From the sequence record PQ341120.1: a stretch of 64,000 nt of DNA; one strand, written 5' to 3'. How positions within the stretch are numbered: position 1 is the first letter of the stretch; the number at the start of each line of letters is the position of its first letter. The stretch is from Escherichia phage EAWsc9. Below, in pieces: positions 4,945 to 38,539 of the stretch. The translations under genes were made by a program, and so were the position numbers. The notes under the pieces were generated by a model. The model made no database searches. It saw only the letters and a list, made by a program, of their open reading frames with translations, and had not been told where the DNA came from.

Positions 4945-5267
4945 TTCGCACCCTTAACAATTTTCAGGTCAACAAAACCTTTCTTGCGCTGGGACTTCAT
5001 ACGCTTGATAGCTTTATCAGAAACTTCTTTGTTTTCGCGCAGAAGCGGCAGACCAAACGCTACTACATCAAATTCGTTCAGGATATACTGGACAAGGCTT
5101 TCACGAATACGCGCTTTACCCATTGTCTGACCTTCTGCAATAATCAGTTTCTGTACATCGCCTTCCCACTGGTCCAGAATCTCAGGGGTAACAAAACCAG
5201 ATTTCATCAGAGTGTTAACTTTAGCAAATGCGAAATTAGCGATGATGTTAGTGATAGATGCAGTCAT
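4941..5267 (-). CDS. hypothetical protein
   Basis: 108-aa minus ORF. Confidence 0.35.
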   Translation of the reverse strand: MTASITNIIANFAFAKVNTLMKSGFVTPEILDQWEGDVQKLIIAEGQTMGKARIRESLVQYILNEFDVVAFGLPLLRENKEVSDKAIKRMKSQRKKGFVDLKIVKGAK

Positions 5268-5339
5268 GATATATTCCTCAGTCTCATTAAATTAAAATTT
5301 TATTATCCTGGGGCCATTATACCATGACCCCGTTGATTT

Positions 5340-5537
5340 TTATTGCGCTTTAGCCGCTTTCCAGCCTTCATACATCATTGCGGCTGATATCAATATTGCT
5401 CCTGAGCAACTTGAATATTTGTGATTCCAAAACCAGTTCAGAAAAACTTCGTCATCAATACCTTGAGCTATCATATTTTCAAAGAACTGACGACGAGATT
5501 CAGCAATTCGCTGTGATAATTTAGATTCAGGATTCAT
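5340..5537 (-). CDS. hypothetical protein
   Basis: 65-aa minus ORF. Confidence 0.3.
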   Translation of the reverse strand: MNPESKLSQRIAESRRQFFENMIAQGIDDEVFLNWFWNHKYSSCSGAILISAAMMYEGWKAAKAQ

Positions 5538-5676
5538 TTAAATTTTCCAGTTACCGTTTTCATCAATAAATTTAATCCAGTCATTTACTGACCACTTAGT
5601 TGTATCGCCTTTTGGAGCAGAATTTAAAGCGTATAATCCTTGTTTAAAAAGCATTCGTTTGATATTCATGTTTTCC

Positions 5677-5970
5677 TCAGCTGTAACGATAGCACTCGTT
5701 TGATTTACGTTTTGCAACAAGATGAGAAGTATTATAATCCAAATCATCCTCAACGTATACATCTTTTTTCAACTGACGAACTTCTTTACGAAGCTGGCGA
5801 TTCATTTCATTCTTAACTTCAGAATCAACACCACGCATACGCTTCCATTTGTCTGAACGGAAGATATTTTCTTCAACTTGTTCCTGACTTACACCATCAG
5901 GTGCCTGACGGCGTCCTGAATAATAAAAATCTTTTACAGACAATTCTTTGCGACGAATAGTTTTACCCAT
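5677..5970 (-). CDS. hypothetical basic protein
   Basis: 97-aa minus ORF, Arg/Lys-rich. Confidence 0.35.
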   Translation of the reverse strand: MGKTIRRKELSVKDFYYSGRRQAPDGVSQEQVEENIFRSDKWKRMRGVDSEVKNEMNRQLRKEVRQLKKDVYVEDDLDYNTSHLVAKRKSNECYRYS

Positions 5971-31397: not shown

Positions 31398-31565
31398 TTA
31401 GTAAAGACGAGTTACTTCATATTTTCCAATTGCCGATTTTTTCGCTTCAATTCGTGAGGCAGCAAGATTGGCGGCCTCTAGTGAAGAAAATTGAACCACT
31501 TGAGAAGTATTCTGTCTTACTCCACCTTGCGGGTGAGTGACAAAAACAATAAGAATATTATACAT
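31398..31565 (-). CDS. hypothetical small protein (below ORF-track cutoff)
   Basis: hand-translated 55 aa MYNILIVFVTHPQGG...; RBS GAGGAAAATATT identical to the two downstream genes. Confidence 0.3.
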   Translation of the reverse strand: MYNILIVFVTHPQGGVRQNTSQVVQFSSLEAANLAASRIEAKKSAIGKYEVTRLY

Positions 31566-31575
31566 AATATTTTCC

Positions 31576-31776
31576 TCAAATAATACCGTATGCGTAAATA
31601 TCTCTTTTAATGCAGGAAACTACTTCTTCCAAAGAATCACAAACACGTTCTGTGGCGCCTGCGTAATCACCACTGATGGTTACTTTAATGCCATCAGAAA
31701 CTTCCTGGAGATTAACCTCCAGTTGGTTGACTTTGGCTTCGTTCAGAACTTTGATTAATTCGTTTGCGATAGACAT
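31576..31776 (-). CDS. hypothetical protein
   Basis: 66 aa; AGGAGA RBS. Confidence 0.35.
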   Translation of the reverse strand: MSIANELIKVLNEAKVNQLEVNLQEVSDGIKVTISGDYAGATERVCDSLEEVVSCIKRDIYAYGII

Positions 31777-31840
31777 TTTTATTCTCCTGTTCTGATAACG
31801 TGATTGTCATCAGTTGATAGGAGTATAGTAACACAGTTTT

Positions 31841-32170
31841 TTAGACTTGTATACTGCTTCTACAATATTCTAAAAATAATTTATCGTTGTTTACCTTATC
31901 CCAACGACGCCAAGATGGATTCCAGACCAGAGCGTTGTCACCGCAATCATTGAGCTTAAAGTGGTCGTAGTACATAGCTATATGTCTGGTTTCGTCACCA
32001 GAGAACCCCAGTATATGCTCACCGTGGGTATGATACATATGATGATGCATTGAGAGGTCGCATTTGTAAAACATCTCACGTTTACCACGAACGAACAAGA
32101 AGGCTTGCTCATTCATATAGAATTCTTTATCTGTTTTCAAAAGATATTTGAATACCGAATCTTTATGCAT
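31841..32170 (-). CDS. hypothetical His-rich protein
   Basis: ATG at 32170 behind AGGAGG gives 109 aa; SMHHHMYHTHGEH cluster. Confidence 0.35.
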   Translation of the reverse strand: MHKDSVFKYLLKTDKEFYMNEQAFLFVRGKREMFYKCDLSMHHHMYHTHGEHILGFSGDETRHIAMYYDHFKLNDCGDNALVWNPSWRRWDKVNNDKLFLEYCRSSIQV

Positions 32171-32200
32171 AATTCCTCCTACCACATCCTTGTGATTAAA

Positions 32201-32428
32201 TTATTTTCCTAACGAAATACGAGTAGGTTTTTTACCGAAATATTCTTCATAGGAACCATCTAAACGACCCGCTTTAGACCGACAATACGAATCATACTTT
32301 TTGTAATAAGTCAACTCGTTATTATAACGTGGATGTCTATCAGCCATAATAATACTTAATGGCCAACCTTTGGCATAATCACGAAGACCATTTATTTTAC
32401 GAATATATCTTTTCTTTAATTTTAGCAT
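32201..32428 (-). CDS. hypothetical basic protein
   Basis: 75-aa minus ORF. Confidence 0.3.
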   Translation of the reverse strand: MLKLKKRYIRKINGLRDYAKGWPLSIIMADRHPRYNNELTYYKKYDSYCRSKAGRLDGSYEEYFGKKPTRISLGK

Positions 32429-32646
32429 GAGCTCGGGTACCAGATTTTACCGTCGGCGCGGGCAACGAAGGTACGACCAGCTTCTTCGCCGTAACAAGAG
32501 CTATTCAGCCAATCTTCAAGACGAACTTCACCGTCATAATCATCTAGCTCAACACCAAAATCCTGAGCAGAAGCCATATCTTTTACTTTCTTATACAGGG
32601 CAGCCAGTTCAAGAGCAGCTTTTTCTAATTCGTTAATATCAGTCAT
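32422..32646 (-). CDS. small protein, C-terminal W-Y-P-S-S-C tail family member D
   Basis: 74 aa; TAAGGAA RBS; ends ...GKIWYPSSC. Confidence 0.45.
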   Translation of the reverse strand: MTDINELEKAALELAALYKKVKDMASAQDFGVELDDYDGEVRLEDWLNSSCYGEEAGRTFVARADGKIWYPSSC

Positions 32647-32656
32647 TTTTTATTCC

Positions 32657-32854
32657 TTAGCATTCGTAAGAGGAGGACACCCAAGAGGTACCACTAATTG
32701 TAATACAACCATTATAAAGCGTGATATGTCGTTCTAAGTCACGAACACCATCAATGTAGATATCAGCTTCTTCGCGTTCTTCTTTACAAATCTGGATAAC
32801 ATTTTCAATAGCTGCCGCGGCAGTACGGATTGCACAATCTAATTCACGAGACAT
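32657..32854 (-). CDS. small protein, C-terminal W-V-S-S-S-x-x-C tail family member C
   Basis: ATG at 32854 behind AAGGAA gives 65 aa; ends ...SGTSWVSSSYEC. Confidence 0.45.
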   Translation of the reverse strand: MSRELDCAIRTAAAAIENVIQICKEEREEADIYIDGVRDLERHITLYNGCITISGTSWVSSSYEC

Positions 32855-32862
32855 AACATTCC

Positions 32863-33144
32863 TTAACATTCAGCAGAAGAGGACACCCAACCACCATTTT
32901 CCAGGTCAGTTGTATAGTCATGAGTATTAACAATAGCCCATTCAGGATGACCATGTTCTTCCCAATGAGCAAGGTCAGCTTTCAGGGCGCCAGGAGAATA
33001 ATAGTCACCGCCCATACCGCGAGCAGGGTATATATTAAAATGAGTCTCATATTTGTCTGCAATTTCCTCGGCACGACGAATAGCTTTATGGATGTCATTT
33101 ACTGCGTTAGCCAGTTCTTTATTTTTACGGTAATCATTCATCAT
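32863..33144 (-). CDS. small protein, C-terminal W-V-S-S-S-x-x-C tail family member B
   Basis: 93 aa; ends ...NGGWVSSSAEC; shares EEIADKY segment with member A. Confidence 0.45.
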   Translation of the reverse strand: MMNDYRKNKELANAVNDIHKAIRRAEEIADKYETHFNIYPARGMGGDYYSPGALKADLAHWEEHGHPEWAIVNTHDYTTDLENGGWVSSSAEC

Positions 33145-33153
33145 AACGTTTCC

Positions 33154-33444
33154 TTAGCACATTGCCGAAGAGGAGACCCAAGCACCAACTGTAACGACAC
33201 CGTTTTCAACTTCACCGCCGTTGTTTTCAATTTCATCTTTAAACCACTGGGAGCACTCATAACCGACAGGATAATATGTACGGCCTGAACCATAATCACC
33301 GGTACCGAATTGGATACCATATTCATCTGCGATTTCTTCACAGTGTTTTTCAATTTCAGAGGTCTTATTTAGAAGAGAATAGATGGCTTTTTCTGCAGAT
33401 TTCTCATCATAATACTTGGGGATAGCAATTTCAATTTTATTCAT
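33154..33444 (-). CDS. small protein, C-terminal W-V-S-S-S-x-x-C tail family member A
   Basis: 96 aa; ends ...VGAWVSSSAMC; AAGGAA RBS. Confidence 0.45.
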   Translation of the reverse strand: MNKIEIAIPKYYDEKSAEKAIYSLLNKTSEIEKHCEEIADEYGIQFGTGDYGSGRTYYPVGYECSQWFKDEIENNGGEVENGVVTVGAWVSSSAMC

Positions 33445-33794
33445 GATTTACATTCCTTAATAAAGGTTTCAAGGTCATTACGTTTTGTTTTGTCTAGGAA
33501 CTTATTATACTCAGCCATTGCTGAAGCATATCTCTTCCGACTAGGAGCATTCACGGCGTTTGTGTGACAAATATCATACACAACCGGGATAAAATAAGCC
33601 ACAACAGCCGGAGCGATTATCATAAAGAAACCCATCTCAATGGGCATGACTCCCTCGATTGCAGCCATAACCGTGGTCATTACCAGACCAACCAAACCAC
33701 CGAGCATACCGGTGACAATTCCCAATAATAAATTGCCGCCAATATCATATTCAGCCAATTGATAAACATGTGATGCAAGACTAGGCCGTTCCAT
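33441..33794 (-). CDS. hypothetical membrane protein with C-terminal FIKECKS motif
   Basis: ATG at 33794 behind AAGGAGG gives 117 aa; two hydrophobic helices; ends ...LETFIKECKS. Confidence 0.4.
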   Translation of the reverse strand: MERPSLASHVYQLAEYDIGGNLLLGIVTGMLGGLVGLVMTTVMAAIEGVMPIEMGFFMIIAPAVVAYFIPVVYDICHTNAVNAPSRKRYASAMAEYNKFLDKTKRNDLETFIKECKS

Positions 33795-34140
33795 TACGAA
33801 CCTCCTTAATAAATTCTTCGGCACATTTAATTTTGTGCTCTTCTTGTAGGGAAACACATTTTTGTTCCCACTCTTTAACTCGCCCACGATATCCTTTATT
33901 CATATGATTTTGATGCCACACATTTATCAATATCATACTCAGGACCGTAATAAAAGGAGCTGCGATTATTAGCGCCCAGGCAACTCCAACACTAATGATA
34001 TCCATATCCCCGCAAAGCACCATCATTATAACCCCAACGATGCACATGGACAAAGCTCCAAATGGAGGCATAAGGTCTTTATCAATCTTGTCTGCGTATA
34101 CAAATTTTTCTGGTTTACTTGGCAGATATAGCGTTCGCAT
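33781..34140 (-). CDS. hypothetical membrane protein with C-terminal FIKEV motif
   Basis: track ORF 33781..34176; start MRTLYLP at 34140 preferred; hydrophobic helices; ...CAEEFIKEVRNGTA. Confidence 0.35.
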   Translation of the reverse strand: MRTLYLPSKPEKFVYADKIDKDLMPPFGALSMCIVGVIMMVLCGDMDIISVGVAWALIIAAPFITVLSMILINVWHQNHMNKGYRGRVKEWEQKCVSLQEEHKIKCAEEFIKEVRNGTA

Positions 34141-34711: not shown

Positions 34712-35305
34712 TTACTTAAGTGAATTGATGTATTCTTCAATGTCAGCGGACGTGGTATCCACACCAACCTGTGGACCTTTGAAGGTTTCAACACGCATCA
34801 AGGTGTCTTCAATATCAATCTTAGTCAATGCAGCGATTTCAACAACATCATCTGCAGTCGCAATACCCAGGGCAGATACCTTACGGGTTTCGCGGATGTA
34901 TTCCAGTTTAACAGCTAGTTCCTGACGAGAATCATCCAGCTCTTTAACTTTCAATTTAATTTCATTACGCATTTCAACATAATCGTCTGCCTTCTTACGA
35001 AGTTGTTTAGCAGTGCGACGATACAGGAGACCCAGTTTAGCATGGACCTGGACATCCGCACCATCAGCAATCAGTTTGCGGATTTCACGCTCTTTTGAGG
35101 CGGCAAGTTGGTCTTTTTCATTCGCTAACTCGCGGATGCGTTTTTCTTCATTAACAGACTTAACGTGGGCGGTCTGGAGCTCAGTAATCTTGTCAATCAG
35201 GGTAGACGCCGCTTGAGTATATTGGTCTTCAATAGACAGGTTTTTTGCCATTGCAGTACCCAGTTTGGAGCGGATGAATTCAACAAGTTTCTTTAAAGTA
35301 TTCAT
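34712..35305 (-). CDS. coiled-coil protein, possibly PspA/IM30-like
   Basis: 197 aa, long charged heptad-rich helices; similarity to PspA judged by eye only. Confidence 0.35.
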
Positions 35306-38386: not shown

Positions 38387-38463
38387 TGGTCGGGGTGGTG
38401 GGATTCTAACCCACAACCTACGGTTTAGAAGACCGTTGCTCTATACAATTGAGCTACACCCCG
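38387..38463 (-). tRNA. tRNA-Arg (anticodon UCU)
   Basis: hand-folded cloverleaf: acceptor CGGGGTG/CACCCCG, D stem GCTC/GAGC, anticodon stem ACGGT/ACCGT with loop CTTCTAA, T stem GTGGG/CCCAC, encoded CCA; T loop TTAGAAT and D loop without GG are atypical. Confidence 0.75.
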
Positions 38464-38539
38464 GGTGGCCCCATCCGGACTTGAACCGGAAACCTGCCAG
38501 TTATGAGCCGGATGCTCTAACCAATTGAGCTACAGGGCC
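38464..38539 (-). tRNA. tRNA with anticodon CAU (Ile-lysidine or Met type)
   Basis: hand-folded: acceptor GGCCCTG/TGGGGCC, D arm GCTC-AATTGGTTA-GAGC, anticodon loop CTCATAA, T arm TCCGG-TTCAAGT-CCGGA; one mismatch in anticodon stem; abuts tRNA-Arg. Confidence 0.7.

Follow-up and report, generated by a model that had tools for sequence, protein, structure and literature searches.

The DNA analyzed here is a stretch of 64,000 nucleotides from Escherichia phage EAWsc9 (sequence record PQ341120.1; hereafter the window), a Gaprivervirus and T4 relative of the VR7/SP18/RZ group. The window carries an array of four consecutive small genes, A to D, whose products share a Ser-rich C-terminal tail ending in Cys, and, in the same operon about 1 kb farther downstream, a gene for a predicted nucleotidyltransferase that was absent from an earlier note on this sequence. 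The end of D and the start of this enzyme gene are 1037 nt apart. Genes for tailed proteins and for the enzyme show near-obligate two-way linkage across unrelated phage lineages and contexts, which points to an undescribed module composed of an enzyme and its tagged partners. The features of the array and the enzyme gene, in window coordinates, are as follows.

33154-33444, minus strand: member A (type A), 96 residues, with a long N-terminal helix, a GDYGSGRTYYP loop and the tail G-A-W-V-S-S-S-A-M-C
33157-33180, minus strand: tail of A, W89-C96 (WVSSSAMC)
32863-33144, minus strand: member B (type B), 93 residues, with an EEIADKY helix, a GMGGDYYSPG loop and the tail G-G-W-V-S-S-S-A-E-C
32866-32889, minus strand: tail of B, W86-C93 (WVSSSAEC)
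32657-32854, minus strand: member C (type C), 65 residues, with the tail T-S-W-V-S-S-S-Y-E-C
32660-32683, minus strand: tail of C, W58-C65 (WVSSSYEC)
32422-32646, minus strand: member D (type D), 74 residues, with the motif in two copies and a tail ending in KIWYPSSC
32494-32511, minus strand: internal motif of D, W46-L-N-S-S-C51, followed by YGE
32425-32442, minus strand: terminal motif of D, W69-Y-P-S-S-C74
30425-31384, minus strand: partner enzyme, 319 residues, matching phrog_2141, with Pfam domains DUF7277 (residues 2-101) and DUF7275 (residues 120-305)

The four coupled minus-strand open reading frames (ORFs) and their common tail, as described in the earlier note, are confirmed, as is the ribosome-binding site that it assigned to each gene. 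The sequence TAAGGAA precedes the starts of A, B, C and D and, for B, C and D, contains the stop codon (TAA) of the preceding gene. A overlaps an upstream e.3-like gene by ATGA, and D is itself overlapped by the next gene. The length given for C is counted from the ATG used in its orthologs; an alternative reading from 32869 yields 70 residues. Escherichia phages pEC-M719-6WT.2 and vB_EcoM_RZ match the region at 97-98% identity, and vB_EcoM_VR7 encodes a copy of protein A with 100% identity. All four tails fit the pattern W-x-x-S-S-x(0-2)-C. Because only 4 of the 522 ORFs of at least 35 codons in the six frames of the window carry this tail, namely A-D, and only 11 end in Cys, its presence in the array is not a matter of chance.

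Conservation of the C-terminal tail and its carriers

In principle, the shared 3' ends of the genes could matter only as DNA, whether for ribosome binding at the next gene or as a recombination repeat, and mean nothing for the protein. Consistent with such an origin, TAAGGAA overlaps the stop codons, a 38-nt direct repeat with 74-79% identity extends over the ends of A, B and C, and copy number differs among relatives, with four members here and five in SP18. However, comparison of the last eleven codons and the next 25 nt in 33 members from ten phage lineages, along the lines that the earlier note had proposed for orthologous loci, refutes this explanation. The W, S, S and C amino acids are fixed while their codons drift, with Ser codons switching between TCN and AGY and Cys codons between TGC and TGT. 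The sequence after the stop is not conserved: it may contain a ribosome-binding site, form a terminator hairpin, overlap the next start or be unrelated. In addition, the internal motif of D lies far from any ribosome-binding site, and the ratio of nonsynonymous to synonymous substitution rates (dN/dS) is well under 1. Thus, because the amino acids are kept while the codons and the downstream DNA change, the tail is conserved at the protein level and not as a by-product of ribosome binding, and an origin in the DNA alone is practically inconceivable.

Among 184 unique members, Trp and the Ser at W+3 are present in 100%, the Ser at W+4 in 85% and the terminal Cys in 97%. The distance from Trp to Cys is 5, 7 or 8 residues, and that from Ser(W+3) to Cys is 2, 4 or 5. 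An internal W..S[SAD]C[YFV]G motif is found in 31 of the 184, and the motif occurs on at least four clusters of protein bodies that BLAST cannot link. One metagenomic protein of 85 residues (P0204; L106:1546-1803) has three copies, WVSSSC, WDDSSC and WDYSSC, within its last 35 residues; its gene lies directly upstream of a DUF7277/DUF7275 gene. The unity of the family resides in the C-terminal motif W-x-x-S-S-x(0-3)-C and not in a common body, and the occurrence of one to three motif copies per protein on unlinked bodies resembles the behavior of a sequon or tag.

The relationships among the bodies are uneven. A, B and D match the phrog_899 profile (E values of 3.7e-23, 2.3e-20 and 6.4e-10, respectively), and C matches the separate phrog_4882 (E 2.4e-36). 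In leave-one-type-out hidden Markov model (HMM) tests with the tail removed, the A and B bodies match each other with E of about 1e-7 to 1e-11, and A, B and a fifth type, E, recognize each other with E from 1e-5 to 1e-11; the similarity of the D body to the other types is marginal, and the C body shows none outside the tail. The earlier proposal that the four are true paralogs is thus well founded for A and B, which also share the EEIAD[EK]Y segment, and weak for D, and it does not extend to C, which has in common with A, B and D only its tail and its position in the array. The type E protein (...GFWFNSSMSC) is encoded between C and D in SP18 (L002:6466-6693) and in JS98-type phages (L020-L025) and is not encoded in the window. 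The 38-nt repeat, which lies at 32653-32690, 32859-32896 and 33150-33187 at the 3' ends of C, B and A, may mediate gain or loss of members such as type E.

Types A-E have orthologs in Mosigvirus, Karamvirus, Kanagawavirus, Marfavirus, Aeromonas phages and Phapecoctavirus. Orthologs of A are found throughout this range and those of C at loci L003, L009 and L010; A and D are the most widespread types, and together they form the commonest minimal set. Against orthologs, pairwise dN/dS spans 0.06-0.22 in A, 0.17-0.57 in B, 0-0.15 in C and 0.01-0.09 in D, and the values of neighboring genes are similar. The idea in the earlier note of a family diversifying in an arms race is rejected on these values, none of which exceeds 0.57, and on the conservation of orthologs in distant genera. 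Instead, the array is an old and conserved paralog set on which purifying selection acts.

The family members are about 60-150 residues long and acidic; the median of their isoelectric points (pI) is 4.36 and that of their net charges -8. The AlphaFold2 (AF2) model of A, with a predicted local distance difference test (pLDDT) score of 83 overall and about 90 up to residue 90, contains a helix (residues 14-42) and a small sheet, the last strand of which contains the Trp. In B, as in six other members of alignment A2, the terminal Cys is the only one. An intramolecular metal site of the zinc-ribbon or another type, with three or four conserved Cys/His ligands, is ruled out by these single-Cys members.

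No match of the family as a whole to a characterized family was found: PHROG 899 and 4882 are of unlabeled function, scans of A-D against Pfam, NCBIfam and PADLOC returned noise only, and a sequence search of the PDB with the small-family profile returned only coiled-coil noise. A profile search of 1.84 billion cluster representatives gave 16 matches. Long multi-repeat matches were discarded as MBG_2 or InlB-repeat surface proteins, which are recovered spuriously through a low-complexity 'YGE..F.V' stretch. The N-termini of the small proteins, compared by eye with those of the T4 internal head proteins IPI-III, which are encoded in the same genome region, are presumably dissimilar to them. In records of Klebsiella phage vB_KpnM-VAC36 (P0010, P0076) a D-type protein is named 'major capsid protein' and the enzyme 'prohead assembly scaffold protein', and in MW250787.1 (UPEC07) a 'tail completion protein' and a 'major capsid protein' are annotated over the region; these names look like shifted or propagated annotation errors.

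The partner enzyme and its linkage to the tailed genes

The enzyme scores 254 bits against DUF7275 and 91.8 bits against DUF7277, with a cut-off of 27 for both. Its AF2 model (pLDDT 91) finds nucleotidyltransferases as its best structural matches: MenT1 (score 10.3), ANT(2'') (8.7), TglT/MenT3 (8.6), MenT4 (7.8), JHP933 (7.7), TM1012 (7.6) and LnuA (7.3). The invariant residues G6-S7, D25-x-D27 and E69 constitute a Pol-β signature, and the enzyme has both the hG[GS] ... [DE]h[DE]h motif and a third carboxylate on the core sheet. The DUF7275 domain contributes many further invariant polar residues. A search against DUF1814 gave no match at E≤1, and PDB sequence searches with the enzyme family profiles, and with the N-terminal domain alone, returned nothing, including no MenT. 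By modeled fold and motif, the enzyme is a predicted nucleotidyltransferase; it does not belong to the MenT family. T4 nrdC.11 (L100:5435-6445, 336 residues, annotated as a nucleotidyltransferase) was considered as a relative and rejected, since it has no similarity to the enzyme and no tailed neighbors.

The linkage between tailed genes and the enzyme gene holds in both directions. At loci found through protein A, a same-strand DUF7277/DUF7275 gene lies downstream in 9 of 10, and at the tenth the enzyme gene lies just beyond the edge of the fetched sequence. Four distant loci chosen by enzyme homology alone, from Pseudomonas phage phiPsa374, Shewanella phage Thanatos-1, Acinetobacter phage Mokit and the Salmonella jumbo phage Munch, all have one to four W-x-x-S-S-x-x-C ORFs directly upstream of the enzyme gene. 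In a larger sample of 80 IMG/VR loci fetched with the enzyme alignment, which are not phylogenetically independent, 73 have a tailed ORF; the enzyme strand carries 205 such ORFs (among 3462 ORFs) and the opposite strand 0 (among 3593), and 200 of these tailed ORFs end no more than 3 kb upstream of the enzyme. In the reverse test, all five contig look-ups that started from small proteins led to a PF23940/PF23942 gene zero or one gene downstream. Indeed, at the protein-A loci and in the reverse look-ups tailed genes were never seen without the enzyme. The number of partners per phage ranges from one to six different tailed proteins.

The neighborhoods of the linked genes differ by lineage and include e.2/e.3, nrdD, Rnl1/Pnk, dexA/tRNA and, in Phapecoctavirus, metallophosphatase/SIR2, as well as that of Otagovirus. 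The linkage spans at least seven neighborhoods and several phage families. Because the surrounding genes differ among lineages, inherited synteny is a poor explanation. This bears on a structural interpretation of the tail, in which the Trp forms part of the core, the two Ser residues make a turn and the Cys serves an inter-subunit metal site or disulfide, while the small proteins act on the host alone and their linkage to the enzyme reflects a shared early-gene cassette. The AF2 model accords with this interpretation, as the Trp and the residues after it form the last β-strand with a pLDDT of about 90; tandem A-E types could hetero-oligomerize and so bring several terminal Cys residues together, and the enzyme exists independently in other phages. 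However, a shared cassette accounts poorly for two-way linkage over so many neighborhoods, the tail is found on bodies without detectable mutual similarity, single-Cys members such as B exclude an intramolecular metal site, and disulfides are unlikely in the cytoplasm. On balance a purely structural role is improbable, and A-D are very probably dedicated partners of the downstream nucleotidyltransferase, to which they would be functionally linked.

The enzyme family comprises 2664 cluster representatives at E≤1e-3 and is found in 731 deposited phage genomes, including those of T4-like phages of Escherichia, Klebsiella, Enterobacter, Aeromonas and Acinetobacter, of Phapecoctavirus and Otagovirus, and of jumbo phages. 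Throughout, the members are annotated as 'hypothetical' or misannotated. The PHROG and Pfam entries record neither the shared tail nor the gene linkage, and in the literature library that was searched no paper mentions the family names or ORF names.

Two residues of the enzyme, Cys243 and Cys272, were compared with the presence of partners. C272 is found in every full-length enzyme checked, including those of the partner-less loci L061 and L093, and is missing from partner-less short homologs of about 250 residues (L016-L019); C243 is absent in one partnered phage. The short homologs retain GS...DxD and most of the DUF7275 invariants and lack C243, C272 and the central sheet segment with E69. 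In these alignments, a link between the two Cys residues and partner presence is suggestive only.

In the window, the interval between D and the enzyme gene is occupied by genes that belong to the same operon and lie outside the conserved core:

31398-32428, minus strand: four lineage-specific small genes of 75, 114/109, 66 and 55 residues

These are missing or replaced in Mosigvirus, Karamvirus and Aeromonas loci. The syntenic e.2/e.3 junction of T4 is empty, with no tailed gene or enzyme block, and no member of the tailed family was found in T4 50-100 kb, in agreement with the observation in the earlier note that the tail is not recognizable from T4. Since e.3 abuts e.2 in T4, the block of tailed genes and enzyme gene represents an insertion compared with that genome. 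Immediately upstream of the array, two overlapping genes, e.3-like and e.4-like (33441-33794 and 33781-34140, minus strand; phrog_2330 and phrog_2604), encode small membrane proteins; each weakly matches the profile of the other, and they look like tandem paralogs. Farther upstream, the e.6 homolog (34712-35305, minus strand; 197 residues, phrog_1203) gives weak coiled-coil-type Pfam matches and is the most constrained gene of the neighborhood, with a dN/dS of 0.03 at dS up to 1.3. A late-promoter scan of 30-37 kb of the window found no TATAAATA, and a σ70 promoter scan was not above background.

Genes of RNA metabolism lie near several of these loci. An RNA ligase gene lies at most a few genes away from the enzyme gene or the tailed genes in phages Hallingskeid and Munch, Aeromonas phage AS-zj and Streptomyces phage Blueeyedbeauty (L006:1188-3974, L008:1-987, L014:1-1804 and L016:1872-2531), and in the jumbo phages Hallingskeid and Munch a Pnk-like kinase is also nearby. 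Such neighbors are hints of RNA or tRNA end chemistry. In the window, genes for tRNA-Arg(tct) and tRNA-Met(cat) (38387-38539, minus strand) lie about 5 kb upstream of the array, and in Thanatos-1 genes for the same two tRNAs (L012:4959-5106) immediately follow the enzyme gene.

Possible roles of the tail and comparison with known systems

Four observations agree: the genes are linked, different bodies share one tail, a hydroxyl residue in it is invariant, and relatives of the enzyme transfer nucleoside monophosphates (NMPs) to hydroxyl groups. Most likely, the enzyme acts on the small proteins through this tail. Enzymes of the Pol-β fold nucleotidylylate aminoglycoside and lincosamide hydroxyls, the 3'-OH of tRNA and, in HepT/MntA, a protein side chain. 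By analogy, the single most likely reading, which we hold tentatively, is that the tail Ser is nucleotidylylated by the partner enzyme. The enzyme would recognize the tail of the small proteins, the invariant Ser at W+3 would serve as the hydroxyl acceptor for NMP transfer (O-nucleotidylylation), and the variable bodies would carry the individual activities of the modified proteins during infection. A precedent for a nucleotidyltransferase that modifies its small neighbor is MntA, which adenylylates HepT (PMC7641770). The suggestion in the earlier note of a modification or recognition tag gains indirect support from the nucleotidyltransferase-fold neighbor and the invariant tail Ser, and the arms-race part of that suggestion is unsupported. 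A more specific form, in which a protein-tagging system of large lytic phages recognizes the sequon W-x-x-S-S-(x0-3)-C, borne in one to three copies by each of a set of small acidic effectors, nucleotidylylates its invariant Ser, or further processes the Ser together with the Cys, and so activates or targets a suite of host-takeover or anti-defense proteins, is possible but less likely than not.

Several observations weigh against Ser modification. No tailed gene lies within 5 kb of the enzyme gene in phage CC31 (L041) or in one metagenomic lineage (L061, L063, L073 and L093; in L073 a frameshift splits the enzyme gene into 5004-5171 and 5301-5930), and the short enzyme homologs of Streptomyces, Gordonia and Vibrio phages (L016-L019) have no tailed partner genes. 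Because the enzyme thus occurs without tailed genes, it must have another substrate or role, which an adaptor or regulator model accommodates at least equally well. The 80 IMG/VR loci lack phylogenetic independence, and HMM detection of family members includes the tail itself. In the AF2 model of A, the Trp and first tail residues make up the last strand of the small sheet, so the motif is partly structural and not a free tag. For this fold, the protein acceptors cited are hydroxyls on the side chains of HepT, which is another partner family. The known protein acceptors of this fold are Tyr residues, and Ser as acceptor is an assumption. Finally, MenT1, the closest structural relative, acts on tRNA, and its small upstream partner controls rather than serves it (PMC10435456).

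A regulatory role is nearly as likely as Ser modification, and is likewise put forward only tentatively. Here the small proteins would bind the enzyme through the tail as adaptors or antitoxin-like regulators and either restrain it, as MenA1 restrains MenT1, or direct it to different substrates, one for each paralog, and the real substrate would be RNA, such as the 3' ends of tRNA. The MenT1 gene follows a 68-residue antitoxin ORF (PMC7450476), and the MenA1 antitoxin spans two toxin protomers (PMC10435456), as the two-motif D type could also do. The uniform acidity of the family (median pI 4.36, charge -8) is expected of nucleic-acid mimics in an RNA-binding groove, the dependence is asymmetric in that the enzyme is seen without the small proteins and never the reverse, and several loci lie beside Rnl1/Pnk or tRNA genes. 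However, a phage with one to six different partners, and a protein with as many as three motifs, has more than a plug or antitoxin requires, a pseudosubstrate inhibitor has no need of a strictly invariant Ser hydroxyl, and the need for an antitoxin in a lytic phage is not obvious. Moreover, neither MenA1 nor MazE nor AbiEi resembles the small proteins in sequence, and the enzyme has no DUF1814 match.

Several 'precursor' genes in tandem, placed directly before a single enzyme gene, also form the classic layout of clusters for ribosomally synthesized and post-translationally modified peptides (RiPPs). In such a scheme the enzyme would activate the invariant Ser, by nucleotidylylation followed by elimination to dehydroalanine, and the Cys thiol would add to it, closing a C-terminal lanthionine-type ring. 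The Ser-Cys spacing of 2, 4 or 5 residues is compatible with thioether rings, as is generally known of lanthipeptides, and DUF7275 has many invariant polar residues of unassigned role. However, the operon has no recognizable dehydratase, cyclase, YcaO or radical-SAM gene, the pattern of conservation is inverted, with a conserved 'core' and a variable 'leader', and the bodies are modeled by AF2 as folded proteins rather than leaders. Ring formation of this kind is very unlikely.

Viewed as a module, about five orphan genes per genome become one testable system, for which Ser(W+3), the terminal Cys and D25/D27 provide handles for study. Many of the phages that carry the enzyme are candidates for therapy. 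If the enzyme modifies the tails, this would be a new kind of viral post-translational tagging, and sequon-directed NMPylation, if true, would be the first such protein system described in viruses. If instead the small proteins control a MenT-like enzyme, lytic phages would have repurposed a toxin-antitoxin-type nucleotidyltransferase, possibly for tRNA manipulation or repair.

Comparison with known systems reveals partial likenesses. The window proteins are clear members of PHROG 899/4882/2141 and of DUF7277/DUF7275, which are entries of unassigned function. ANT(2'')-Ia (AadB) and LnuA act on small-molecule substrates, have no partner proteins and lack sequence similarity to the phage enzyme. 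RiPP clusters, for example those of lanthipeptides, share with the module the short genes directly upstream of one enzyme gene and the key C-terminal Ser and Cys, but no RiPP enzyme family is present in the phage operon, the conserved and variable parts are inverted, and the phage proteins are folded and acidic.

The type VII HepT/MntA system resembles the module in that a nucleotidyltransferase gene adjoins the gene for a small protein, and there the partner is the substrate: two studies describe a Pol-β-fold nucleotidyltransferase beside a small protein that it modifies with AMP (PMC7641770, PMC11586414). It differs in that the partner is a HEPN RNase and the enzyme a minimal nucleotidyltransferase (MNT) of about 130 residues. 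The small phage proteins gave no HEPN match in Pfam or PADLOC, scans in which the Rx4-6H motif was not searched for, and the AF2 model of A is a long helix with a small sheet, not a HEPN bundle.

In MenAT1 of Mycobacterium tuberculosis, the DUF1814 nucleotidyltransferase MenT1 is encoded just after the 68-residue antitoxin MenA1, which binds two enzyme protomers (PMC7450476, PMC10435456, PMC11375011). The likeness to the phage enzyme is one of fold only, with no sequence similarity, no DUF1814 match and 10% identity in the structural alignment. MenAT1 is a chromosomal toxin-antitoxin locus, whereas the phage module sits in a lytic phage; MenA1 lacks a W-x-x-S-S...C tail, whereas the module has one to six tailed partners; and the phage enzyme, unlike MenT1, has the large conserved DUF7275 domain. 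The module varies the 'nucleotidyltransferase plus small partner' theme; it occurs in lytic phages and is distinguished by its sequon-like tail.

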